From assembly GCF_900142105.1 (NCBI RefSeq), contig NZ_FQZS01000007.1:68248-92247 (forward strand): 24,000 bases of DNA. The letters are read 5' to 3'. Shown here piece after piece: positions 5,988-17,468 of this stretch. The translations under genes and the position numbers were made by a program. The DNA is from Lutispora thermophila DSM 19022 (lineage in GTDB: Bacteria > Bacillota > Clostridia > Lutisporales > Lutisporaceae). The notes beneath the pieces are model-generated. The model was not told the DNA's origin. It worked only from the letters and a program-made list of their open reading frames with translations, and made no database searches. Numbering within the stretch: position 1 is the stretch's first letter; every line of letters starts with the position of its first letter.

Positions 5988-6100
5988 ATCAAGAAACATT
6001 AATATAAAAATACATTTACAGCTCTAACCTCAAAGCAATGAATATCGGGGTTTAGTAACAAACAAGACAATCATCCAACCTGCTTGTGACCTGACACATC

Positions 6101-6160
6101 AAAAATGGACACTGGAGCGATACTCAAAACCAGTTATGGTATCGTTGTGTCCATTTTTTG
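6101..6160 (+). terminator. intrinsic terminator closing the pyr operon
   Basis: AAAAATGGACAC (6101-6112) pairs with GTGTCCATTTTT (6147-6158). There is an inner GCGATAC/GTATCG stem and a T-run at the 3' side. Confidence 0.75.
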
Positions 6161-6181
6161 TTAAGCTTAATGTTAAAATAA

Positions 6182-6872
6182 TCATCCAGTCTTTAGTTCA
6201 ATCAGTCTTATAATATACGTGCCAGCCAACAATATTAGACTCAAAGCTGAATAACCAATCAATATGCTCGTGCCCACATCTGTTCCAACATTGCATAGCC
6301 CCGTAAAATTTAAGATATAATTATTCTAGCTAATACCTGTATACCAAATGAATGAATAAATATATCATTTGAAACAAATTTGGACTTCTACTCCATGCGC
6401 TTAAAAATAAGGCCAAAGAAGGGATAAATATGCTCCCTGCCATTATCATAGTAATATCAATATGCTGCCTTAGCAATAGCCCTTTGCAAATCAATGGCAC
6501 ATTGGGCAAAAACACTATAAGGACTCCGCAAATATAATGCGTTAAAATCTACATCCTATTGAAATATGATGTACTCTGAATCACCTCTCTAGTACTATAA
6601 TAAATGTTCCTTGTGTTTATTTCTGATATGATGCTTAAAGGCATTATCCATAAAATTGATATTATGGGGCCCTTCACCGAATCAAATGACAAAAGCAAAT
6701 ATAATCCGATGACTGCTACATACATAAAAAGTATAAAAGCATTGATACTCCGCACCACAAGCCCCAGTTCTGCATATAATAAATCCCTTAGTCTGTATTT
6801 TAGATTTCCAGCAAAAATCCTGCTCAATACATAATTATCTTGTTGTGCCTTTGCCATATTGTTTTTTAACAT
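6182..6872 (-). pseudogene. decayed polytopic membrane protein: one in-frame TAG plus one frameshift
   Basis: ORFs 6549-6872 and 6330-6515 share a frame and are separated only by TAG at 6549-6551; the read-through is ...YFNRM*ILTHYICGVLIVFLPNVPL.... A further hydrophobic piece (GLCNVGTDVGTSILIGYSALSLILLAGTYIIRLIELKTG*, ending 6182) continues in another frame. Confidence 0.4.
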
Positions 6873-6937
6873 ATCACTTCTTACAACTTGCCCATTTCTC
6901 GTTTTTTATAAATTTAAGAAGGCTGCCGCCCAACTAA

Positions 6938-7528
6938 CTATTTATTAGTTGTGCAACAACCTCCACTTCTAAAATTCTTCACCTTTCCAATAATTATCAA
7001 AATACTTAATGCAAGTATCGATACAGATATGCAAAACGAAACCCAGCTCACTCTCAGCCCCATGGCCAGTAGCATAGCACATAATTCTACTGCAAGAATT
7101 TTTCTTGCTCGCTTTTTATATACTTCCTCTTCCATTTTATCCAAGGGCTTGTTGGCATCCTCCACAGGAGCAAGGGCATAGATGATTATTGCTGCAATCA
7201 TTGCTATACATACAATATTAAACCTTGTACAAGGAATAAGTTTTATTGCCAAAAGCACTGACATAGTTAATAATATGGAAAAAAAGTAACATTTTGATTG
7301 TGTCCTTGCATGATAACCTCCTGCAAATGACCTCAACGGAATGTATGCAATCATAAACAGAAGGCTTTGCCAAACCATATTGAACAAAAGGCCTATTGCT
7401 ATTGTTGTAAGGATATTCACAATTATTAATAATCCCTGTTTTAAACCATACTCATATAAGTCTCTGTCTTCAACTTTTATGGCTCCATTGGCAATGAGCC
7501 CATCCGCAATTTTATTAATCAAGTCCAT
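6938..7528 (-). CDS. agrB: AgrB-family accessory gene regulator protein B (AgrD-processing membrane peptidase)
   Basis: 196 aa, polytopic. The stretch IAYIPLRSFAGGYHARTQSKCYFFS carries the catalytic His and Cys of AgrB. Its ATG lies 6 nt after the agrD stop. Confidence 0.88.
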   Translation of the reverse strand: MDLINKIADGLIANGAIKVEDRDLYEYGLKQGLLIIVNILTTIAIGLLFNMVWQSLLFMIAYIPLRSFAGGYHARTQSKCYFFSILLTMSVLLAIKLIPCTRFNIVCIAMIAAIIIYALAPVEDANKPLDKMEEEVYKKRARKILAVELCAMLLAMGLRVSWVSFCISVSILALSILIIIGKVKNFRSGGCCTTNK

Positions 7529-7533
7529 ATCAA

Positions 7534-7677
7534 TCAGAATTTGCGCAAATTCTCTGCACCTTTAGGCAGTTTTGGTTGGTGAATTAAGCATATACATGTT
7601 GTATTTACGTTCATTGTTGTTATAAACAAGGCAAAACTGGCAATCAAACTACTCAACTTTATTAAAGCTTTTTTCAT
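7534..7677 (-). CDS. agrD: AgrD-like autoinducing-peptide precursor (47 aa, absent from the ORF track)
   Basis: Hand translation gives MKKALIKLSSLIASFALFITTMNVNTTCICLIHQPKLPKGAENLRKF*. GGGAGG sits 8 nt upstream of the ATG. It has an amphipathic N-terminus, a Cys-containing pentapeptide, then an HQPKxPK tail like clostridial AgrD (C. perfringens ...CLWFT-HQPEEPK..., from memory). Confidence 0.85.
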   Translation of the reverse strand: MKKALIKLSSLIASFALFITTMNVNTTCICLIHQPKLPKGAENLRKF

Positions 7678-7748
7678 TACCATTACCTCCCATAAATCTT
7701 TTCATTTAGTTTTATATTACATCAAAGATATCATTTAAGCGATTAGAT

Positions 7749-7786
7749 GGTAAAACTTATATATGTTTTTGGCAAAACTTACAGTT
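7749..7786 (-). promoter_or_regulatory. LytTR-type direct-repeat box A, upstream of agrD
   Basis: GGTAAAAC at 7749-7756 and GGCAAAAC at 7771-7778, period 22 bp. It shares a roughly 38-bp consensus with boxes B, C and D. A TAATAT -10 candidate lies downstream on the minus strand. Confidence 0.7.
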
Positions 7787-7792
7787 TTTTTC

Positions 7793-8296
7793 TTAAAAAG
7801 TATTAGCAAATCTTTGATTCTTGGGAAGAAGTTCATTAGCTAATTGTACTGCCTCATTCCAATCTTTAGATGGCGCAGAAATCATCCATCCATCAGCAGA
7901 ACTAAAACTATATACACCTGATTCATTGGGCTCAAATATTTTAATCATAATCTTTTCTAACTTATCTCCAAAATAAGCATGCAGAACTGTATCGCTATTC
8001 TTTAAGCCTGCCATTCTATCTTTATTTATTATCAATGTCATTTTAGTAAAGTCAAATCGTTGGTCTTCTACATCAATAGTGCCTTCAAATGCAATTCCCC
8101 CGTCTTTTGATGGCCTATATGTTCCATTAATTGATATGGTAATGGGTACCACATCTTCCCTATTTACCATCCTGAACTTAAGTCCGTATAAAGTAGTGTT
8201 TATTGATTTGGGAGACATATAATAATAATTACATGCAACATATATTAACAATATAATTACTATCAAAATACTGATTGACTTATCTGTAATTTCCAT
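7793..8296 (-). CDS. hypothetical N-terminally membrane-anchored or secreted protein
   Basis: 167 aa. GGGAGGAG RBS 10 nt upstream. One N-terminal hydrophobic helix (SISILIVIILLIYVA) followed by a soluble domain. No recognisable family. Confidence 0.7.
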   Translation of the reverse strand: MEITDKSISILIVIILLIYVACNYYYMSPKSINTTLYGLKFRMVNREDVVPITISINGTYRPSKDGGIAFEGTIDVEDQRFDFTKMTLIINKDRMAGLKNSDTVLHAYFGDKLEKIMIKIFEPNESGVYSFSSADGWMISAPSKDWNEAVQLANELLPKNQRFANTF

Positions 8297-8839
8297 TATT
8301 ATCTAGCTCCTCCCAAGTATTTCTTGGCCCAGTTCATAATATGAATTATACTTTTTAAATATATCATATCAATGTTACATTGATCATCATTTTGCTTAAC
8401 AGCATGAAAAGAGACTAAAATCTTTTATAGGTCTGCATACACATTGTTCCATATATAATCACTTCAAAACTCTTAAATCTGTGCTTTCTCTATTTATAAG
8501 CAAATTTTGTGTAAAATATCTCCTAACTAACATTATTTTTCGCTTCATTTTAAAATAAGAAAGGCTTACTATAAAAGTGTTTATATTTATCTAGGTAGCC
8601 TTTCTTGAAACCTATTACGGAAAGTACAAATTAAAAATTTATACATGTTTTTCCAATAACCTAACACTTTTTCAGAAAAATATATACAATGTACACATTA
8701 CAGCATCTTAAAAATCAATCAGTATATGTTGAAGCAAATGATAATTAAATTTAGTTTATCTTTATAAAATCCTCATGGAAAACAAGTATCACATATAAAA
8801 ATGTCTCTACCTTAAAAGATATCCTTTAAGGAATTGAAT

Positions 8840-8877
8840 AGCAAAACTTATATGTGTTTCTGGTAAAATTTAAAATT
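8840..8877 (-). promoter_or_regulatory. LytTR-type direct-repeat box B (no ORF immediately downstream)
   Basis: AGCAAAAC at 8840-8847 and GGTAAAAT at 8862-8869, period 22 bp. Its higher-coordinate flank matches the box C flank and its lower-coordinate flank (AAAGATATCNTTTAAG) matches the box A flank. Confidence 0.6.
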
Positions 8878-8943
8878 TTGAATTGATTAGCAGAAATGTC
8901 TTGTAAAATGAAAATTTCCGGTACCTGTTTGGTGAAGGGAGCT

Positions 8944-9027
8944 TTATTTGGCATATTGCTTAAAAAGCTTCTCATCATCAGATTTCAGTATCACAAAATT
9001 TTTCTCTTGAAGCTCCTCTGCTGTTTT
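8944..9027 (-). pseudogene. internally deleted relic of the ankyrin-repeat gene
   Basis: Translates KTAEELQEKNFVILKSDDEK|LFKQYAK*. This matches residues KTTDGLQEENSVILKSDDEK and the last residues IFKQYAK of the intact 153-aa gene, without the ankyrin repeats. A degenerate copy of that gene's terminator and spacer follows (8893-8945). Confidence 0.75.
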
Positions 9028-9073
9028 TTAAAAGGCAACTTTGTCACAAATTCTTCCGCAAACAAAATTTGCA

Positions 9074-9328
9074 TCACATCAGTCGTTCCTCTGGATCACG
9101 AAATGCATCACAAATTTTATCGCATATTCCATCACATATTCCATCACATACTGAAGCAACACAATCACATATCTTATCGCATACTATACCATCACATATT
9201 ACGACTTCACCGGGATCTGGAATACCGGCAACGATAAAGCTGAATTCAAGTCTGTTTTCCATCTCAGTAATGCTCAAATTTTCAACGGAATTCAAATTAA
9301 TTGAATTCAATATACCTTTGTTATCCAT
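9074..9328 (-). CDS. RiPP precursor paralog A3 (Cys-Asp tetrad-repeat peptide), probably frameshifted at its 3' end
   Basis: 84 aa. Same AAGGAGGTGAAATT RBS as A1. The leader differs from A1 at 3 of the first 38 residues. The core has 8 Cys in [I/V]CDx units. The ending RDPEERLM* is unrelated, while the adjacent frame (9028-9078) encodes CDANFVCGRICDKVAF*, homologous to the A2 tail. Confidence 0.8.
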   Translation of the reverse strand: MDNKGILNSINLNSVENLSITEMENRLEFSFIVAGIPDPGEVVICDGIVCDKICDCVASVCDGICDGICDKICDAFRDPEERLM

Positions 9329-9421
9329 AATTTCACCTCCTTTATTTTAATCTGATGCTTAATGTTTGGATTAATTGCTAATTTTATCTTACAATAAAAA
9401 AAGTCCCTAATGGGTTAATAT

Positions 9422-9459
9422 GGTAAAATTTACATATATTTTGGGTAAAATTTAAAGTT
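9422..9459 (-). promoter_or_regulatory. LytTR-type direct-repeat box C, upstream of precursor A3
   Basis: GGTAAAAT at 9422-9429 and 9444-9451, period 22 bp. It lies about 95-130 nt upstream of the A3 ATG. Confidence 0.7.
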
Positions 9460-9485
9460 CTGCTTTGGTTGGAAGGAATGTCTCG

Positions 9486-9524
9486 TAAAATGAAAACTCC
9501 CCTCACCTGTTTGGTGAAGGGAGT
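9486..9524 (-). terminator. intrinsic terminator ending the biosynthetic operon, after the ankyrin gene
   Basis: On the minus strand, ACTCCCTTCACC-aaaca-GGTGAGGGGAGT is followed by TTTTCATTTT, starting right after the TAA at 9526-9528. Confidence 0.8.
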
Positions 9525-9525
9525 T

Positions 9526-9987
9526 TTATTTGGCATATTGCTTAAAAATCTTCTTCAGGTAGGTGTTATCTCCTTCCATTACAAGATCATACACTGACTT
9601 TCCACTGGATGTTATAACATAAGGATCTGCTCCGGCTTCCAGCAATATTTTAGCCATATCGCAATTTCCCATTACCAGCACCATCTCAATAGGATATTGC
9701 CCTTCTGAATCCTGACTGTTTATATCAACTGTTCCACTGGCTAATATCCTCTTAACTAATGCAATGTTGTTCTCCAATACTGCCTGTGTTAACATATCAA
9801 TCGTAAATTCCATATTACTAACCCTTTTCTCATCATCAGATTTAAGAATCACAGAATTCTCTTCCTGAAGCCCGTCTGTTGTCTTTGAATCAGCAGATAA
9901 AACGATGTTGTTGAAGTTCAGTAACATGATCACTGACACAAATACTGCTGCTAAAACCATTGTTGCTCTCGAACCTTTATTTAGCAT
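9526..9987 (-). CDS. signal-anchored or secreted ankyrin-repeat protein
   Basis: 153 aa. N-terminal hydrophobic segment ATMVLAAVFVSVIMLL. Ankyrin-like repeats: NIALVKRILASGTVDINSQDSEGQYPIEMVLVMGNCDMAKILLEAGADP. Confidence 0.8.
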   Translation of the reverse strand: MLNKGSRATMVLAAVFVSVIMLLNFNNIVLSADSKTTDGLQEENSVILKSDDEKRVSNMEFTIDMLTQAVLENNIALVKRILASGTVDINSQDSEGQYPIEMVLVMGNCDMAKILLEAGADPYVITSSGKSVYDLVMEGDNTYLKKIFKQYAK

Positions 9988-10036
9988 ATAATATCTCCTC
10001 CTTATTCTATTTTATTTTTTAACACCCTTAATGATG

Positions 10037-11167
10037 CTATTGAGCACAATTATCAACCTCTTTTTTTCTTATAAAGCGATTATAGAACTCTAAAAACCTA
10101 TTTGTGATAGCTCTAAAAAGAATTATTACTAAATACATATAAAATAAATTCATTAAAAGTCTCACATTAAGTTTAATATTACTGAAATCCCTAAAGTATG
10201 ACACTATGAATTTTACAATCAAAGCACCTTTTTTAATTAAAATTATTGTGAATAAAAAATATAAGAAGTAGTAAATGTTGTTTGCAACTTTACCTATTTT
10301 ATTATTCTCATAATACTGCAAAACATCTCTGAAAAACCAATATCCATCTGTTCTCATGAAAGGATGAAAATTAAAATAAAAAGTATAAAAAAGCATATTT
10401 ATACATATTAGAAAAATGCTGTATTTAGTTACTATATATAAAATAATTAATAAAACCATATATATGCCTTGCGCAAACAATCCTGCAATATTAACCAAAA
10501 TTCTTTGTTTCAAATCAAGTTCATCTATCCCTGATACATTCGTAAACATAACTGGATATATCAAATATACGGAAAAACTGATAGGTCTTAATCCTATGCC
10601 GCAGTAGCTGCACATGTATGAATGTCCAAGTTCATGAAACATGATGCCAATTATAATAATCAATAATAAAGCAAAGAAATCTGATATGTAAAAATTATCT
10701 TCTTTTTGATAGGCTGAAAAAAAACTATTAAAAGGCAATCCTAAAACAGCCACCAGCAGAACAGAGATAGACACAAGTTTAAGCATGGTATTTTCCCTTA
10801 AATTATATAAAAAGCTGTGACCAAAAAGCTTTTCTTGAATACTGCTTGAAAGCACCTGAATTTGAGGATTAAATATTTTGCGTATTATATGCTTAAATTT
10901 TTTATTGAAACTTTCATACTGTCTTTCCTTTAACACTCCAAGATCAATCAATTTGTCAAATATAACCTGACTGTTTTCTATATTTAAAGATGTTAAATGC
11001 CTTAAATACTCTTCTTTATCACCTTTTTCAGGCAGAACGGATATGAGATAAGCCACTTCTTTACTTACCTTATAGCAAGATGTCTTGTTGATTATTAAAT
11101 TCCCATTTTTATAATCCGGCATATATTCATTTTTAAATACATTAACATATTCTGAGCCAGCTCTCAT
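10037..11167 (-). CDS. membrane-embedded zinc metalloprotease, M50/site-2-protease-like (YydH-like), with a cytosolic N-terminal domain
   Basis: 376 aa. HELGH at codons 178-182 (10622-10636) lies in a TM segment. NFHPFMRTDG matches the S2P signature NxxPxxxxDG. Multiple TM helices. The first ~90 aa resemble a PqqD-like winged-helix domain (VSKEVAYLISVL...VIFDKLIDLGVLKE). Confidence 0.75.
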   Translation of the reverse strand: MRAGSEYVNVFKNEYMPDYKNGNLIINKTSCYKVSKEVAYLISVLPEKGDKEEYLRHLTSLNIENSQVIFDKLIDLGVLKERQYESFNKKFKHIIRKIFNPQIQVLSSSIQEKLFGHSFLYNLRENTMLKLVSISVLLVAVLGLPFNSFFSAYQKEDNFYISDFFALLLIIIIGIMFHELGHSYMCSYCGIGLRPISFSVYLIYPVMFTNVSGIDELDLKQRILVNIAGLFAQGIYMVLLIILYIVTKYSIFLICINMLFYTFYFNFHPFMRTDGYWFFRDVLQYYENNKIGKVANNIYYFLYFLFTIILIKKGALIVKFIVSYFRDFSNIKLNVRLLMNLFYMYLVIILFRAITNRFLEFYNRFIRKKEVDNCAQ

Positions 11168-11194
11168 ATTATCACTCGCTTTTGTTTTGCATAA

Positions 11195-12613
11195 TTACAG
11201 ATGAGGAAATAGGAAATTTAAACTATCTATGCGATCATCCTGTTCTCGCTCAGTATATATATATTTGATGGCTTCATAAATTTCATCTTTCCTTGTGCTG
11301 CAATATGGGTTATATATACTTCCATTGTTTTCTCTAGCCTGAACGCCGCATTCTCCGGCACAAAGCAGTGAGATGGAACATTCCAAACACTTATCAAGAT
11401 TAAGCAGATTTCTGTTTAGGTAATCTTCTCTCAATGAGTTAAAATAAACCTCTCCATTTTTCAGGTATCCTATTTTATAATCATCCCTGCCTGCTTCCTC
11501 ATAGCAGCCGTATATGTCTCCATATGGGTCAATGAGAAAGTTATTGGGTATATTTTGCATGCAAAATCTTGTTTTTCTGAATGGTATGCCCCTTTGAATT
11601 TTCATAAGATATGCCAATCCCTCTGCTTTTCTTCTTATGGGATGTCTGATTTTGCTTTTTATATTGATTGATTCTATTGTTGCAGCGGCTTCCATATGTC
11701 CTACAAAAGAACTGTCATCTGTTTGCTTGAAGTGATTGTGCAAAGGATGCAGATAAATATATGCGTATGGATGATTTAAAATTTCTTCCTTTTCAAGAAA
11801 ATCGTACAAGAATGCCAGTTTTTCCAAAGAATTGGCATCAATATTTATTCTTATATTCAACTTTACTTTCCTATCCAGCATTAAATGGATATTCCTTACT
11901 ATTGTATCAAATGTTGGCTTTCCAGGCTCTGAAACTCTACTTGTATCGTGATCTTCTTGGTTGCCGTCTATTGATACTTGTATGAAGTTTATTTGGCCCG
12001 GCAGAGGACCAACCAAATCCAGGTAATGTTCCAATTGAGTACAATTGGATATGGCACCTACATTGATTGAATATTTATTGGAATACTCCAATACCCTTTC
12101 TACCACATCCCTATTCCTTTTTAAAAAAGGTTCTCCTCCATATAAGGTAATGTCCAGGTCTTCTCTTGAAACATCTCTATATAACTTTTCAAAATATATG
12201 CCAAACAATTGATCCACAAATTCTTTCGTCATAACCTTATTTTCTTTTTTTCCTCTAATTGGCTTCTGATAACAGTAATAGCAATTTAGATTACATGCAT
12301 ATGATAGTAGCAACATCAAGTTGCACTCTGAAAAATCATTTTTTAAATTAAACTCATCTATTTTCTTAACAAACTTAACAAACTCTTTCTTTTCTTCTTC
12401 AGGAGTAAGATTTGTTACATGCCCTCTTCTTTGCAGGAATTCAATTTCCACATCGGCAATATCCTGGGAAGATACCACTTTATCCTTATTGCTTAGAAGT
12501 TGGCCCATCTCTTTAGAAACCTCATCTATACATCCATTGAATCCATTAAATAACAGATATGTGTCTTTAAGAGGTATTATATTTAGATATTTGCTAACAT
12601 AATAGTTTTTCAT
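11195..12613 (-). CDS. radical SAM/SPASM-domain peptide maturase
   Basis: 472 aa. CNLNCYYC (CxxxCxxC) at 12272-12295. GGEPF SAM motif. C-terminal auxiliary-cluster cysteines include the CX2CX5CX3C motif CLECSISLLCAGEC and GDIYGC. A ~100-aa N-terminal extension precedes the rSAM core. Strong RBS GAGGAAGGAG. The start lies 20 nt inside the upstream gene. Confidence 0.9.
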   Translation of the reverse strand: MKNYYVSKYLNIIPLKDTYLLFNGFNGCIDEVSKEMGQLLSNKDKVVSSQDIADVEIEFLQRRGHVTNLTPEEEKKEFVKFVKKIDEFNLKNDFSECNLMLLLSYACNLNCYYCYQKPIRGKKENKVMTKEFVDQLFGIYFEKLYRDVSREDLDITLYGGEPFLKRNRDVVERVLEYSNKYSINVGAISNCTQLEHYLDLVGPLPGQINFIQVSIDGNQEDHDTSRVSEPGKPTFDTIVRNIHLMLDRKVKLNIRINIDANSLEKLAFLYDFLEKEEILNHPYAYIYLHPLHNHFKQTDDSSFVGHMEAAATIESINIKSKIRHPIRRKAEGLAYLMKIQRGIPFRKTRFCMQNIPNNFLIDPYGDIYGCYEEAGRDDYKIGYLKNGEVYFNSLREDYLNRNLLNLDKCLECSISLLCAGECGVQARENNGSIYNPYCSTRKDEIYEAIKYIYTEREQDDRIDSLNFLFPHL

Positions 12614-14444
12614 AATAAACTCCTTCCTCTATGAACCTTTTTGTATCCAATGCAGATAAAAAATATCCATAACGGGACACATTGCTTCCGTTAGCATAAA
12701 ATGGATGAGGCACATCATTTTTTATGAAATATTCATGAATATTGCCTTTATGAATCTTATAAAAGTTGCCTTTATAAAAATCGGAGAACCATTTTTCCAA
12801 CTGCGGCTTTTGTTCTAAAAATCTTTCATATACTTCATTTGAAAAGCCCAAGCTTTGTCTGATATCTATGTCAAATTTCTTGGCAGACAGATAAACTGCA
12901 AGCCCTTCATCATAATACTTTATTAACTCATGTGGCATATTCATGCTACGCCATATGCCAGCAGTCATGAAATGTGTTAGCTCATGGGTGATGAGTCTTA
13001 ATATATCTTGCTCATCAATCCTGTCATCAGAGAGCATTATAACACGGTTTGGGTTAAAGCAATTGCATGCATTGAAATTACCTAATAATATGCGCACTAT
13101 CTCAATGTTATCAATATCTTTAAGAAAAACATCTTTGTTAATACCGAACAAAGTTTCAATTTCACCGGATAAATATTCACGGATATCTATTATATCTTTT
13201 TTTTCTATTGGGGTTATTTTTTTACTTGACAAAAATTCTTTATATCTGTAATATGAGTTACTATCCAGATTAGGCATGTCCAAGCTGTAAGTTGAAAATA
13301 TTTTTCTCAACTCTGGAAGGCCTCGGGTTAAATAATCAACATAATTATCGCAGCTTAAAATGATGTTCCTTATATGATCTGAGTGATTTGTGATATTAAT
13401 ATCAGGTTCCTTAATGGATGTTTTTATATTTGCAGATATGGGCTCATTTGTTATTTCACTTTCAATTTTAAAAGCAATAGTTTTTATAAATTCAGTATAT
13501 TCTTTCAAAAGTGATAAATCAATTTCCTCCGCTCCAAATTTACTAAAAGGAATGCCATTGTGAAAATGATTAATCTTAATAAACAGGCTTATGCTTGGTC
13601 TGTTTTCTTTTACCAGAGTTACACCTTCGCATACTCCAAAGGGAATTTCCGCTTTATACTTTTCATCTAACTGATGCATAACTCCTTCAGGGATAAACTT
13701 ATCCAGCTCTACACCATTTTGTTTTGTGCGTATACCGAAGCCATTATTGCTGTTTATCGATGAGTCTATGGCATCCATAGATATAAAATATAGATCCCTA
13801 TCATAAATTATGTTTAAAAACTCATACAATCCTGAATGACTTACCTCTTCATTAAGCGTCAAAAGTCCGTAATACTTATCAGCATAGTTTTCATATTTCA
13901 TCAGATATATGATAAGAGCAGCATTCAATATATTATCTAAGTTCCAATTTGTCAAAGTATCATTTTTTAATACAGGAGACCCATCATAATGGATGACAAG
14001 TTCACCTGAATCATAAGTTTTTATCAAATCATTATGAGCTTTAAAAAACAATGTGACGCCATCCATGCCACTTCTATGACAATGCTCTACCTCAAGTTGA
14101 TCTATACTTTCATACATTCCCGGCAAAAACACTCCAAAATTTCTGCCCACTAAATATTTTGAAGTTCTATGTCCGTACAATTTTGAGTACATATATTCCT
14201 CATCTTGACTATAGTAAAGCCTTCCTCCAGGATGATCGAGATGAGCCTGAAAGCATATCCTATTATTTTTTATTTTTTCTTGGGAATCCTCTCCTAAAAA
14301 AATATTACCGTTCCTTGTAATAAAAAAAGGTATGTTTCCTAATATAGAAGCTAAAATAGCTTTCGTCGTTTCATTCCATTTATGAAAGGGAACAATATGC
14401 AATCTGGACAGTTCTTTAACAATTTTATGATATTCTTGTATCAT
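12594..14444 (-). CDS. two-domain putative leader peptidase: N-terminal co-catalytic (M42/M20-like) aminopeptidase fold plus C-terminal HExxH zincin domain
   Basis: 616 aa. Ordered motifs AHLDHPG (H68/D70), NLDN (D170), NEEVSH (E199/E200), SMDAID and INHFH mirror the M42 metal ligands. HELTH at codons 487-491 (12972-12986) is followed by YDEGLAVY. Overlaps the rSAM gene, implying translational coupling. Confidence 0.6.
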   Translation of the reverse strand: MIQEYHKIVKELSRLHIVPFHKWNETTKAILASILGNIPFFITRNGNIFLGEDSQEKIKNNRICFQAHLDHPGGRLYYSQDEEYMYSKLYGHRTSKYLVGRNFGVFLPGMYESIDQLEVEHCHRSGMDGVTLFFKAHNDLIKTYDSGELVIHYDGSPVLKNDTLTNWNLDNILNAALIIYLMKYENYADKYYGLLTLNEEVSHSGLYEFLNIIYDRDLYFISMDAIDSSINSNNGFGIRTKQNGVELDKFIPEGVMHQLDEKYKAEIPFGVCEGVTLVKENRPSISLFIKINHFHNGIPFSKFGAEEIDLSLLKEYTEFIKTIAFKIESEITNEPISANIKTSIKEPDINITNHSDHIRNIILSCDNYVDYLTRGLPELRKIFSTYSLDMPNLDSNSYYRYKEFLSSKKITPIEKKDIIDIREYLSGEIETLFGINKDVFLKDIDNIEIVRILLGNFNACNCFNPNRVIMLSDDRIDEQDILRLITHELTHFMTAGIWRSMNMPHELIKYYDEGLAVYLSAKKFDIDIRQSLGFSNEVYERFLEQKPQLEKWFSDFYKGNFYKIHKGNIHEYFIKNDVPHPFYANGSNVSRYGYFLSALDTKRFIEEGVYYEKLLC

Positions 14445-14494
14445 AACATTTATCCTTTCTTTCGCTTTAATATCATGTTATTTCCATCATCAGT

Positions 14495-14803
14495 CTACCA
14501 GATGACCTTGTCACAGAATCTTCCGCAAACGAAATTTACATCGCATGGATATATTGTGTCACAAAAAACATCACAAACTTTATCACATATCTTGTCACAG
14601 ATATCCCCACAAATCTTATCGCATACTTTATCACAAATAGGACTGCAAATTACATCACATACACCGGTTGTACACTCAGGGCGGATTATATCTAAAATTG
14701 ATATGTCCATAATCGAATAGACAATTCTTTCTTCAGATTTTTCCAATATTAGATTGTCTTCATTGAACAGGTTAATAGTTCTAATAATATTATTCATAAA
14801 CAT
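14495..14803 (-). CDS. RiPP precursor A2 (13-Cys Cys-Asp tetrad-repeat peptide)
   Basis: 102 aa as tracked. The likely true start is the third codon (ATG at 14797), 7 nt after GGGGG. Cys-free leader ...IRTINLFNEDNLILEKSEERIVYS.... Core CTTGVCDVICSPICDKVCDKICGDICDKICDKVCDVFCDTIYPCDVNFVCGRFCDKVIW. Confidence 0.85.
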   Translation of the reverse strand: MFMNNIIRTINLFNEDNLILEKSEERIVYSIMDISILDIIRPECTTGVCDVICSPICDKVCDKICGDICDKICDKVCDVFCDTIYPCDVNFVCGRFCDKVIW

Positions 14804-14881
14804 TCCCCCAAGTTATATTTTCACATTATTCAATTTGCATAACCTGTCTAATAAACATCCGAAAGAACTAATTGAGGATTA

Positions 14882-14920
14882 CTCAAACTCATCTTTGCCC
14901 CAGCCAAAGATGAGTTTGAG
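14882..14920 (-). other. 15-bp perfect stem-loop between precursor A1 and A2 (partial terminator or RNA stabiliser)
   Basis: CTCAAACTCATCTTT (14882-14896), 9-nt loop, AAAGATGAGTTTGAG (14906-14920). There is no U-tract on either strand. Confidence 0.6.
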
Positions 14921-14954
14921 TATGTAACCTTAATTATTTTGCAAAATCAAATTG

Positions 14955-15188
14955 CTACCAAATTGCATCGCATATTTGTCCACATATTTGATCACATATT
15001 GCATCACATACTGCGGAGATGCAGTCACATATCTTATCACATACAATAGCATCACATATTCTACCATCATAATAATCCGGAACACCAGCAAAGATAAAGC
15101 TGAATTCAAGTCTGTTCTCCATTTCAGTAATACTTAAATTCTCAACTGAATTTAGGTTAATTGAGTTCAATATGCCTTTGTTTTCCAT
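14955..15188 (-). CDS. RiPP precursor A1 (8-Cys Cys-Asp tetrad-repeat peptide)
   Basis: 77 aa. RBS AAGGAGGTGAAATT. Leader MENKGILNSINLNSVENLSITEMENRLEFSFIFAGVPD. Core GRICDAIVCDKICDCISAVCDAICDQICGQICDAIW. Confidence 0.88.
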   Translation of the reverse strand: MENKGILNSINLNSVENLSITEMENRLEFSFIFAGVPDYYDGRICDAIVCDKICDCISAVCDAICDQICGQICDAIW

Positions 15189-15282
15189 AATTTCACCTCC
15201 TTTATTTCTGTTTTACTTCATGCGTTATTTATTGATAGCTATTTTTAGCTTATAATAAAAAAGCCCCCTAATGGGGGAAAGT

Positions 15283-15320
15283 GGTAAAACTTATACACAT
15301 TTTTGGTAAAATTTAAAATT
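15283..15320 (-). promoter_or_regulatory. LytTR-type direct-repeat box D, upstream of the precursor A1/biosynthetic operon
   Basis: GGTAAAAC at 15283-15290 and GGTAAAAT at 15305-15312, period 22 bp. A TATTAT/TATAAG -10 candidate lies at about 15249-15257 on the minus strand. Confidence 0.72.
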
Positions 15321-15375: not shown

Positions 15376-16671
15376 CTAAAAACTATGACAAAAATTATAT
15401 AAAAGAACATCTGCATAAAACATAGAGTCTGTATGTTGTATGGTTATCGCTCCATTATATTTGCCAATGGCCTTTTTTACACTCTTTAAACCAAATCCAT
15501 GATTTTCTTTATCTCTATGAGTCGTCTTAAGATCGCTGTTTTCATAGACAAGATTTCCGTCAAAGGGATTTGAGATGCTAATATAAAGAACATTTCTATC
15601 TAGCTTGATAGAAGCTTTAATGGTTTTATCCCTTTCCAATTTTGATACCGCCTCTATAGCATTATCAAACAAATTGCCAAGAATTATGCTCAAATCAAAA
15701 GGCTGGATATCTAATTTCTCAGGCATGTTCAATTCCAAATCCACTTCTATGCCAAGCTTTTTTGCCTCATTTATCTTATAATTCAATATACTATCTACCG
15801 GCATATTGCCGGATTTGATATGATTGTTTGATTCTCCGATTAAATCAAAAATTCTATGTAAATATTCCAAAGCACCTTTATTGTCGTTTTTTTCTATTAG
15901 GACCTGTAAAACTGAGATATGATTTTTTATATCATGTCTGAGAATCTTTATATTCTCATTAGATTGATTAATAATGTCAAGTTGTTTTATATAAGCATTA
16001 TTCTGCTGGTGCAGCAATTCTTTTTCTATTTTTTCGTTATAAGATCTTATCAAAGCATCATATAAATAAAATACAAAAACATTAATAATGAATAATATTG
16101 ATATACTTATCAAAATAAAATACAATTTGTATTGAGCTTCTATAGTTATCAAAATAAAGGTGGAAAAGAGAGTTCCTACAGGTATTAAAATTATTGCAAT
16201 CCAATGCATAGGAGAAATGTTTATATCATTTTTTATCATTTTGAAATTTGATAAAGCAAGCATGATCATATATGAAATTATCTTTGTACTAATTAGTGCA
16301 GCTATTAATTCTACATTGGCATCATCGCTTAATTGATTTAAGTTCATAGATTTTAACCCATACACTGTTAAAGCTTCAACAGACAGCAATATTGCATATA
16401 TGTAAATCGTTGCAATAAGTCTTGACTTCAATGAAGCTGGATAATTAAACGTTAGCAAGAAAAATAGAATAAGATTTGAAATTAAATTAACACCTGGATT
16501 GTTAAACATAATGTAAATAATAGCTATAGATAGATAATAAAGTATATAAGATATGAATTCAAAATTTTTGCTGACTGCATCATTTTCAAAGAAAAAAGTC
16601 ATAAATTTGAAAATTATATAAGTACCAAAGATATTTGACAGAAGATAAATAATATCGTAATTATCAAGCAT
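15376..16671 (-). CDS. AgrC-like (HPK10-type) membrane sensor histidine kinase
   Basis: 431 aa. About 6 N-terminal TM helices. H-box LRHDIKNHISVL, N-box LGNLFDNAIEA, G-box HGFGLKSV. Its start overlaps the response-regulator stop by 8 nt. Confidence 0.88.
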   Translation of the reverse strand: MLDNYDIIYLLSNIFGTYIIFKFMTFFFENDAVSKNFEFISYILYYLSIAIIYIMFNNPGVNLISNLILFFLLTFNYPASLKSRLIATIYIYAILLSVEALTVYGLKSMNLNQLSDDANVELIAALISTKIISYMIMLALSNFKMIKNDINISPMHWIAIILIPVGTLFSTFILITIEAQYKLYFILISISILFIINVFVFYLYDALIRSYNEKIEKELLHQQNNAYIKQLDIINQSNENIKILRHDIKNHISVLQVLIEKNDNKGALEYLHRIFDLIGESNNHIKSGNMPVDSILNYKINEAKKLGIEVDLELNMPEKLDIQPFDLSIILGNLFDNAIEAVSKLERDKTIKASIKLDRNVLYISISNPFDGNLVYENSDLKTTHRDKENHGFGLKSVKKAIGKYNGAITIQHTDSMFYADVLLYNFCHSF

Positions 16672-17395
16672 TGTTATTAACCTCTTTCTGTCTCATCTGC
16701 AAAAGCTTGTCTCTCACAGCCTTTCTGTTATGTTGGCTAATGGGCAGTATCACATTATTGGATATCCTAACTTTATCATATTGCACTTCAACTATGTGAT
16801 CATAATTTACCAGATATGATTTATGAATGGATATGAAAGGCGCTCCTCTAATCTGCCTTTGTATTATTGACAATTTGGAATAATATTCCTCTATGGTATC
16901 TTTCATAATAATGCGGATTTTTTTACCCATACTTTCAAAATATAAAATATTATTTATCGGTATTCTATAAAAACAATGACCCTTTTGATATTCAAAAATA
17001 ATGCCATTATTACGTAAAAGTCTTAAGGCTGTCATAAATACTTTCTGGATTTTCTCATATGTAAGAGGTTTTATTAGGAAATTGAGAGGCCTTATATCGA
17101 AAAGTTCCATGGCATAGCTGTCTTTTCCTGACACATAAACTATATGGGTGATATCATTAGCTATTACTTCTCTTATGAGTTTACCAATTCTTATTCCATT
17201 CATGGTCTTTAGGTCAATATCTAAAAATATTACATCATAATACACTCCTTCATGTAATGACTGGCATAATTTTTCTCCAGAATAGAATGTCTCTACAGAT
17301 ATTTCCTCGCAAAAGGTCTGTCCTATTTCCAATAATACATTTTCCATGTAGGCACATATAGCTTTCTCATCATCACATATAGCTACATTAATCAT
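16664..17395 (-). CDS. LytTR-family response regulator (AgrA-like)
   Basis: Start trimmed to the ATG at 17395 (AAGGAGGTG RBS), giving MINVAICDDEK.... REC domain with DVIFLDIDL. C-terminal LytTR domain ILYFES...ISIHKSYLVNYDHI. Confidence 0.9.
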   Translation of the reverse strand: MINVAICDDEKAICAYMENVLLEIGQTFCEEISVETFYSGEKLCQSLHEGVYYDVIFLDIDLKTMNGIRIGKLIREVIANDITHIVYVSGKDSYAMELFDIRPLNFLIKPLTYEKIQKVFMTALRLLRNNGIIFEYQKGHCFYRIPINNILYFESMGKKIRIIMKDTIEEYYSKLSIIQRQIRGAPFISIHKSYLVNYDHIVEVQYDKVRISNNVILPISQHNRKAVRDKLLQMRQKEVNNNA

Positions 17396-17468
17396 ATAGG
17401 ACACCTCCTTTAAAAGGATATTATAGAAAACTAAACCTTTATTTAACATATTTTATTTAATTTGTATA

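Follow-up and report, generated by a model that had tools for sequence, protein, structure and literature searches.

A predicted agrACDB-type quorum-sensing locus with a radical-SAM RiPP island between agrC and agrD in Lutispora thermophila

A 47-codon open reading frame (ORF) precedes agrB in a 24,000-nt stretch of the Lutispora thermophila DSM 19022 genome (contig NZ_FQZS01000007.1; the whole stretch is called the window hereafter), and an island of genes for a peptide made on the ribosome and then altered by post-translational modification (RiPP) stands between it and a kinase-regulator pair. This locus raises the question of whether the ORF is a true agrD encoding an autoinducing peptide (AIP), whether its place before agrB is anomalous, and whether the distant kinase and regulator belong to the same system. 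The comparison with relatives indicated that the region is probably one agrACDB-type quorum-sensing locus, autoinduced by its AIP, in which a radical S-adenosylmethionine (SAM) RiPP island lies between agrC and agrD. All of agrA, agrC, the island, agrD, agrB and the direct-repeat boxes described below were on the minus strand. The features on which this answer depends were as follows.

16664-17395, minus strand, agrA-like response regulator with REC and LytTR domains (Pfam Response_reg 1.5e-12, LytTR 1.7e-15)
15376-16671, minus strand, agrC-like sensor histidine kinase with a GHKL domain (Pfam HATPase_c_5 9e-25; about 6 N-terminal spans)
9074-15188, minus strand, inserted RiPP island (from Pfam/NCBIfam matches and ORFs)
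7686-7691, minus strand, ribosome-binding site GGGAGG of agrD, read from the sequence
7534-7677, minus strand, agrD, 47-aa AIP precursor MKKALIKLSSLIASFALFITTMNVNTTCICLIHQPKLPKGAENLRKF (NCBIfam TIGR04223 and conservation)
6938-7528, minus strand, agrB, membrane peptidase/cyclase of 196 aa (PF04647; His73/Cys80; about 5 hydrophobic spans)

Identity of agrD and its predicted ring

A total of 799 AgrB homologues were found, and the 79 best genome loci, with AgrB identities of 38-71%, were fetched. The taxa in this set included Clostridium sporogenes, C. tepidum, C. pascui, Lacrimispora, Anaerocolumna, Ruminococcus, Tissierella, Sedimentibacter, Paenibacillus and Fontibacillus, and the top identity among loci of GTDB species representatives (71%) belonged to a Clostridiaceae metagenome-assembled genome. 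The AgrB homologues were aligned, all small ORFs of the 79 loci were searched with an iterated AgrD profile, and the conservation of AgrD was read from an alignment of 72 ORFs upstream of agrB (71 relatives and the window). Metagenome contigs matching the window were ENA ERZ651803 and JGI 3300010285, 3300012949 and 3300010286. Single loci are cited below by their L numbers.

The 47-aa ORF scored 47.9 bits (E 9.6e-13) on NCBIfam TIGR04223 (AgrD family cyclic lactone autoinducer peptide), for which the cutoff is 19, homologous ORFs occupied the same position in 71 other genomes, and 71 of the 72 aligned ORFs, that of the window counted in, passed the same model at E <= 0.001. No Pfam family matched the ORF at E <= 0.01, the staphylococcal-type Pfam AgrD included. 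Judged by its sequence, the ORF is a genuine agrD, as the first-pass annotation had claimed, and a member of a known, automatically annotated family. The label "unannotated" given to it there was true only of the first ORF track and arose from the length cutoff of that track: the gene was called by JGI on sister contigs, the exact 47-aa sequence is present in the NCBI, UniRef, MGnify and JGI collections, and WP_089285235.1, from a relative with an identical mature region, carries the name "cyclic lactone autoinducer peptide". The strong ribosome-binding site claimed for the gene was borne out, with GGGAGG 8 nt before the ATG. An alternative in-frame ATG at 7683 would give 49 aa by adding Met-Val; the 47-aa start was preferred because GGGAGG lies 8 nt from the ATG at 7677 and only 2 nt from that at 7683. 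The stop codon of agrD was separated from the start of agrB on the same strand by 5 nt.

AgrD was laid out as a hydrophobic leader (residues 1-22, with a mean Kyte-Doolittle hydropathy of 1.78 over residues 4-22), the conserved NVNTT, a predicted ring C28-I-C-L-I32 and a C-terminal recognition tail, HQPKLPKGAENLRKF. The only invariant columns of the 72-sequence alignment were Cys28 and Gln34; His33, Pro38, Leu44 and Arg45 were near-invariant and Cys30 was variable. A Cys stood exactly five residues before [H/Y/N]Q in 87 of 89 AgrD-like ORFs, and 58 of the 78 distinct AgrD tails started with HQP. Since Cys28 and Gln34 are invariant, Cys30 is variable and the five-residue spacing is fixed, cleavage after Ile32 to give the C28-I-C-L-I32 ring is most likely, in agreement with the ring proposed earlier from the clostridial pattern. 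The exact CICLI core was also found in L005, L006 (Anaerovirgula multivorans), L084 and L088.

Two other readings of the ORF have to be weighed. One is that it is a chance ORF or a decayed remnant in a non-functional locus. Regional decay speaks for a remnant, as the gene 3' of agrB is broken by stops and the tail of the 84-aa precursor of the island is frameshifted. However, the chance-ORF reading was excluded by the hidden Markov model E-value of 9.6e-13 together with the homologous ORFs at the same position in 71 genomes, the reading frame is unbroken and its ribosome-binding site optimal, the identical mature core is kept in four other lineages, agrB is intact including its catalytic residues, and the promoter box is conserved, all of which made this reading very improbable. 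The other concerns the product: the ring may close from Cys30 (C30-L-I-H-Q), as had been offered earlier as the alternative, or the two Cys of the core may give a two-Cys product such as a disulfide or bicyclic species. A second Cys was present in 12 of the 54 distinct rings of relatives and stood most often at position 3 of the ring, which may reflect selection. Against the Cys30 ring, Cys28 is invariant whereas Cys30 is not conserved, H33-Q34-P35 forms part of the conserved C-terminal tail in nearly all homologues, and closure at Q34 would destroy the five-residue spacing of the 87 ORFs. The chance of such a product was considered small. For the favoured CICLI ring, further rearrangement has a precedent, since an S-to-N acyl shift turns tail-less clostridial AIP thiolactones into homodetic cyclopeptides (Molloy et al. 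2021, PMC8251862); by analogy, CICLI could plausibly rearrange in this way, and both of its thiols would then be free.

The partner protein AgrB matched Pfam PF04647 over model positions 2-183 of 185 (E 3.2e-40; 137.9 bits against a gathering value of 23), and five hydrophobic 19-residue segments in its hydropathy profile marked it as a polytopic membrane protein. A sequence search of the PDB gave no match for it. His73 and Cys80, seven residues apart, were invariant across 24 diverse homologues; the catalytic His77/Cys84 of Staphylococcus aureus AgrB share this spacing, and we take the two pairs to correspond by motif spacing only.

Gene order and the island between agrC and agrD

The order agrD then agrB had been flagged in the first-pass annotation as unusual, and a comparison with related genomes had been suggested. 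In 71 of the 79 loci an AgrD-like ORF was found directly upstream of agrB on the same strand, usually with a gap of 0-18 nt, and in none of the 79 did the iterated profile search find one downstream on the same strand, so that no AgrB paired with a downstream peptide of this kind was met. Three loci carried a convergent AgrD-like ORF about 90 nt downstream of agrB and two had none at all. A REC+LytTR regulator and an HPK10-type kinase lay directly upstream (<600 nt) in 48 of the 71 loci, giving agrA-agrC-agrD-agrB, and no same-strand upstream kinase was found in 18 of the 71. The agrACDB order and a partial "agrDB" have also been published for C. difficile (Martin et al. 2013, PMC3754575). The arrangement agrD-then-agrB, usually as agrA-agrC-agrD-agrB, is the default layout of this clostridial AgrB clade, and it should not be flagged as anomalous in its genomes.

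The window kept the order agrA, agrC, agrD, agrB, with an agrC-agrD gap of 7,699 nt and 10 other ORFs in it; the usual gap in relatives was 100-300 nt. The earlier statement that the agr locus is split by the RiPP island was right about this distance, and the genes are not scattered: the order of the clade is retained and the island is nested within it. The same island adjoined agrD-agrB in L005, L088 and L090 and was absent in L089, L084 and L006. L089 consisted of regulator, kinase, AgrD and AgrB with nothing between, and L006 was contiguous, with an agrC-agrD gap of 160 nt and an identical AIP core. The kinase of the window was 78-79% identical to those of L084 and L089 and 67% identical to that of L006, and all three of these are directly upstream of agrD-agrB. 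The RiPP island is read as an insertion between agrC and agrD of one ancestral agrACDB locus, because the kinase is 78-79% identical to kinases abutting agrD-agrB in island-free relatives. AgrB was 76% identical to that of L084 and 72% to that of L089, near the identity of the kinases, which argues for one co-inherited locus. The kinase and regulator 7.7 kb away had been named as the presumptive receptor pair, and this assignment is strengthened by their orthology to pairs that abut agrD-agrB where the island is missing.

The genes of the island, and the one that separates it from agrD, were as follows.

14955-15188, minus strand, precursor of 77 aa, first precursor gene of the island
14495-14803, minus strand, precursor of 102 aa
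12594-14444, minus strand, 616-aa HExxH protein of no family
11195-12613, minus strand, radical SAM/SPASM maturase
10037-11167, minus strand, M50-like membrane metalloprotease
9526-9987, minus strand, ankyrin-repeat protein
9074-9328, minus strand, third precursor, 84 aa
7793-8296, minus strand, 167-aa membrane-anchored protein between the island and agrD, with one N-terminal hydrophobic span

The three precursors shared a common leader (MENKGILNSINLNSVENLSITEMENRLEF in two of them), and their cores were composed of C-D-x-[I/V] four-residue repeats. The best NCBIfam matches of the radical SAM/SPASM protein were CefB (126 bits) and PapB (113 bits), both far below the cutoffs, and no curated Pfam or NCBIfam family matched the precursors or the 616-aa HExxH protein. 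The island possibly represents a new ranthipeptide-like class with Cys-Asp thioethers. At 9025-9085 (minus strand), the 84-aa precursor ended in CDAFRDPEERLM followed by a stop codon, and the next frame read CDANFVCGRICDKVAF up to its stop, matching the C-terminus of the 102-aa precursor; the 84-aa gene looks frameshifted or truncated. The 167-aa protein had no match in Pfam or NCBIfam, and a fragment of a homologue was present in L005. A metagenome scan with the 616-aa island protein added just one further locus, the short L090.

Small cargo genes were also observed in the agrC-agrD gap of L007 (7012-7650), L084 (8781-9690) and L015 (5657-6235). They encoded a lipoprotein, a secreted protein and a small membrane protein, and the cargo of L007 had its own box. 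The 7.5-kb agrC-agrD gap of L030, examined as a candidate RiPP island, was found to hold an IS66 insertion and unrelated genes. The agrC-agrD gap of this clostridial agr clade may be a recurrent landing site for AIP-controlled cargo, with an AgrA-type box copied before each unit and a complete but uncurated radical-SAM RiPP pathway as the cargo here, a generalization to which we give somewhat less than an even chance. If true, it would be a new operon architecture in which a ranthipeptide-like product of a new class is tied directly to an AIP circuit. The window shows the nested island with duplicated putative operator boxes cleanly, at least three more metagenomic lineages repeat it, and no description of such a nested agr/RiPP architecture with duplicated boxes was found in the literature searched on agrB-upstream and on ranthipeptide and AgrD themes. 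The nested architecture is modestly interesting; agrD alone matters little, as one more AIP precursor in normal gene order.

A second copy of agrD (CICLI) was observed in L005 (1230-1382) and L090 (912-1064), between agrC and the precursors and about 130 nt before the first precursor, and the contig of L088 begins within the last codons of such a copy (1-31). The repeat-pair scan found no box between this second copy and the precursors in L005, L088 or L090. If this arrangement is real, a single operon would yield both the RiPP and the quorum signal in these three loci. The agrD that adjoins agrB in L005 has another ring, CIWLI. In the window there is no second agrD copy before the precursors; it was either lost or never present.

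Direct-repeat boxes, the receptor and the predicted circuit

A direct-repeat element, AARTTTTRCC-N12-AARTTTTRCY with a 22-bp period, was present in four copies in the window, all on the coding strand. Against 100 dinucleotide-preserving shuffles, the pattern gave 4 matches with 0.00 expected.

15283-15314, minus strand, box 1 (AAATTTTACC-N12-AAGTTTTACC), immediately behind agrC, 94 nt upstream of the first precursor, putative AgrA operator
9422-9453, minus strand, box 2, 93 nt upstream of the 84-aa precursor
8840-8871, minus strand, box 3, inside a 165-nt duplication with a remnant of the ankyrin gene's 3' end; the 167-aa gene starts about 540 nt downstream
7749-7780, minus strand, box 4 (AAGTTTTGCC-N12-AAGTTTTACC), 71 nt before the agrD ATG, putative agrD-agrB autoinduction promoter

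The position of box 1 just after agrC is that of the agrD box in island-free relatives. A -10-like element, TGTAATAT (7714-7721), lay 27 nt downstream of box 4, and the box was likewise found before agrD in L005, L088, L089, L006, L007 and L012, with a TGTAAGAT/TGTAATAT -10-like element exactly 27 nt on. LytTR operators, such as those of AgrA at P2/P3, ComE and PlnC/D, consist of two direct repeats of 9-10 bp about 21-22 bp apart upstream of their targets. By analogy, the four boxes are putative LytTR-type operators of AgrA. This operator-like architecture before agrD implies that agrD-agrB would have its own autoinducible promoter even in contiguous loci. Because boxes precede agrD, two precursor genes and the 167-aa gene, they suggest that the AIP controls both its own synthesis and the RiPP island.

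The box copies could be traced in part. A 165-nt direct duplication (8808-8972 and 9390-9554, 78% identical) took in, besides the box, a hairpin and the final codons of the ankyrin gene; one copy encoded the end of the ankyrin gene, KIFKQYAK and its stop, and the other a remnant, KLFKQYAK and its stop. The duplication shows an apparent spread of box copies by segmental duplication. Between box 3 and the 167-aa gene, about 540 nt (8297-8839, minus strand) held no convincing ORF and no Rfam match; the stretch may represent an extended leader, the remains of a gene or an RNA, so far unrecognised, that the box drives.

For the kinase, a weak match to AgrC in NCBIfam was obtained, and its pairing with the linked agrD-agrB AIP is presumptive, being drawn from the orthology described above. 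The longest ORF of the regulator starts at 17449 (261 aa); the ATG at 17395, preceded by the strong ribosome-binding site AAAGGAGG, gives the 243-aa form of ENA and is probably the true start.

The comparison shows that all four agr proteins belong to their families, that the synteny and the Cys are conserved, and that the boxes are non-random and keep their positions in relatives; we infer the cleavage sites, ring chemistry, kinase-ligand pairing and regulation of the following circuit. The agrA-agrC genes would be transcribed from an ordinary sigma-70-like promoter, of which a candidate (TTGAGA...TGCTATAAT) was found upstream of agrA after the HSP20 terminator, and agrD-agrB from its own promoter with the LytTR-type direct-repeat box. 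The hydrophobic leader would hold the 47-aa AgrD at the membrane, where AgrB, with His73/Cys80, is predicted to cut off the C-terminal 15 residues (HQPKLPKGAENLRKF) and to join the Ile32 carbonyl to the Cys28 thiol, forming the five-residue C-I-C-L-I thiolactone. Export and leader removal would then yield a tailed thiolactone or, as in other Clostridia, a ring without a tail, which rearranges into a homodetic cyclopeptide. The AgrC-like kinase (15376-16671) would sense this signal and phosphorylate the AgrA-like regulator, which in turn would bind the four boxes and raise expression of the RiPP operon, the third precursor and the 167-aa gene and, by positive feedback, of agrD-agrB itself. On this model, production of the uncharacterised radical-SAM peptide with Cys/Asp repeats would be switched on by a cyclic peptide of the sequence CICLI.

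Several points weigh against this circuit. No box was found upstream of agrA by the pattern/repeat search, the putative assignment of the boxes to AgrA was made solely by the LytTR-operator analogy, and the second Cys in the ring could alter the predicted ring chemistry. Among the closest relatives the identity of the sensor does not track the ring: the sensors of L084 (CICLI) and L089 (CTFLI) were both 77% identical to that of the window, and the ligand pairing is not shown by covariation because these two are equally identical and their rings differ. The comparison with L006, which has the AIP core of the window, was suggestive of such tracking, its sensor domain (71%) being better conserved than its cytoplasmic half (63%). 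An orphan 423-aa HATPase_c_5 (HPK10-type) kinase was also observed just outside the window, beyond the pyr operon (L001 18365-19636). It had no adjacent regulator, its similarity to the window kinase (26% identity) was confined to the catalytic half and its sensor was unrelated, and as a candidate AIP receptor it was judged unlikely on that account.

In three-component bacteriocin regulation, a kinase and a regulator sense an induction peptide, and here the pair may similarly belong to the RiPP island, sensing an island peptide or a linear induction peptide, with agrD-agrB left as an orphan whose signal goes to another kinase. The island lies directly next to the pair, and box 1, if functional, drives the precursor genes; an orphan agrDB pair is known in C. 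difficile agr1 (PMC3754575), 18 of 71 relatives are without a same-strand upstream kinase, and the HATPase_c_5 kinase beyond the pyr operon would be at hand. On the other side, the orthologues of the window kinase (78-79%) adjoin agrD-agrB in L084 and L089, where there is no island, agrD itself is preceded by the same box, and signalling through the orphan kinase is opposed by its low identity (26%, catalytic half) and unrelated sensor. An island-owned kinase was thus regarded as unlikely, and the pairing of the kinase with the AIP of the same agrACDB locus was retained.

Further features of the boxes were noted. A short G+C hairpin (e.g. CCCCCATTAGGGGG) and a T-run lay between the box and the -10-like element at 15262-15281 and 9400-9420 (minus strand), and also in L005, L006, L088 and L090; they were absent at the agrD box of the window. 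This box-proximal hairpin may terminate read-through from the upstream gene. In L089 (7921-7952) and L084 (10715-10746) a box stood downstream of agrB, before a 267-aa and 189-aa secreted/membrane pair of no family. This pair, absent from the window, probably represents further regulon members in those relatives.

Comparison with known systems and neighbouring genes

The locus resembled agr2 of C. difficile R20291 (agrACDB; PMC3754575) in its four components and their order, with a REC+LytTR regulator and an HPK10-type kinase, and differed in that agr2 is contiguous without a biosynthetic island inside. C. difficile is the more distant relative, because it is not among the 79 closest AgrB loci. 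Closer was the agr locus of Anaerovirgula multivorans (L006; AgrD WP_089285235.1), in which the mature region NVNTTCICLIHQPKLPKGAEK was identical and the same box stood upstream of agrD; its kinase was 67% identical to that of the window (sensor domain 71%, cytoplasmic half 63%), its regulator 63% and its AgrB 59%. Unlike in the window, the four genes of Anaerovirgula multivorans were contiguous and no RiPP island was present. The Clostridium sporogenes and C. botulinum pairs (L039, L052) shared the AgrB clade (49-51%) and the order regulator-kinase-AgrD-AgrB, and their AgrD is routinely named by NCBI, but they differed in the ring (CIFLV), in having no island and in a kinase of just 33-35% identity.

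With agrBDCA of Staphylococcus aureus the predicted system would share a cyclic peptide processed by AgrB, sensing by AgrC/AgrA, LytTR direct-repeat operators and autoinduction. In contrast to agrB-agrD-agrC-agrA with its divergent RNAIII, the gene order was reversed, and when the whole window was scanned against Rfam no known RNA, RNAIII-like or other, came up. Three-component systems of class II bacteriocins (PlnABCD type) likewise have direct-repeat promoters together with an HPK10 kinase and a LytTR regulator. The same kinase and regulator types, direct-repeat promoters and adjoining peptide-modification genes are found at agrBDCA-CA_C0082 of C. acetobutylicum (PMC10301443). Unlike the C. 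acetobutylicum and PlnABCD-type clusters, the window carries its cluster inside the agr operon, between agrC and agrD, with a radical SAM/SPASM protein and not LanM-like or bacteriocin genes. The Rc-AIP1 peptide of Ruminiclostridium cellulolyticum (PMC8251862) is also an AgrB/AgrD-derived ring closed through Cys; it has six residues (CWFWSY), whereas the ring of the window is predicted to have five with a second Cys.

Downstream of agrB, a 107-aa ORF (5988-6872, minus strand) ran in frame through stops into more hydrophobic segments and appears to be a disrupted membrane-protein gene (pseudogene); it had no family match and no homologue among the fetched loci. In the island-bearing L088, a gene for a 1,060-aa LanB-type lantibiotic dehydratase lay immediately 3' of agrB (6838-10020).

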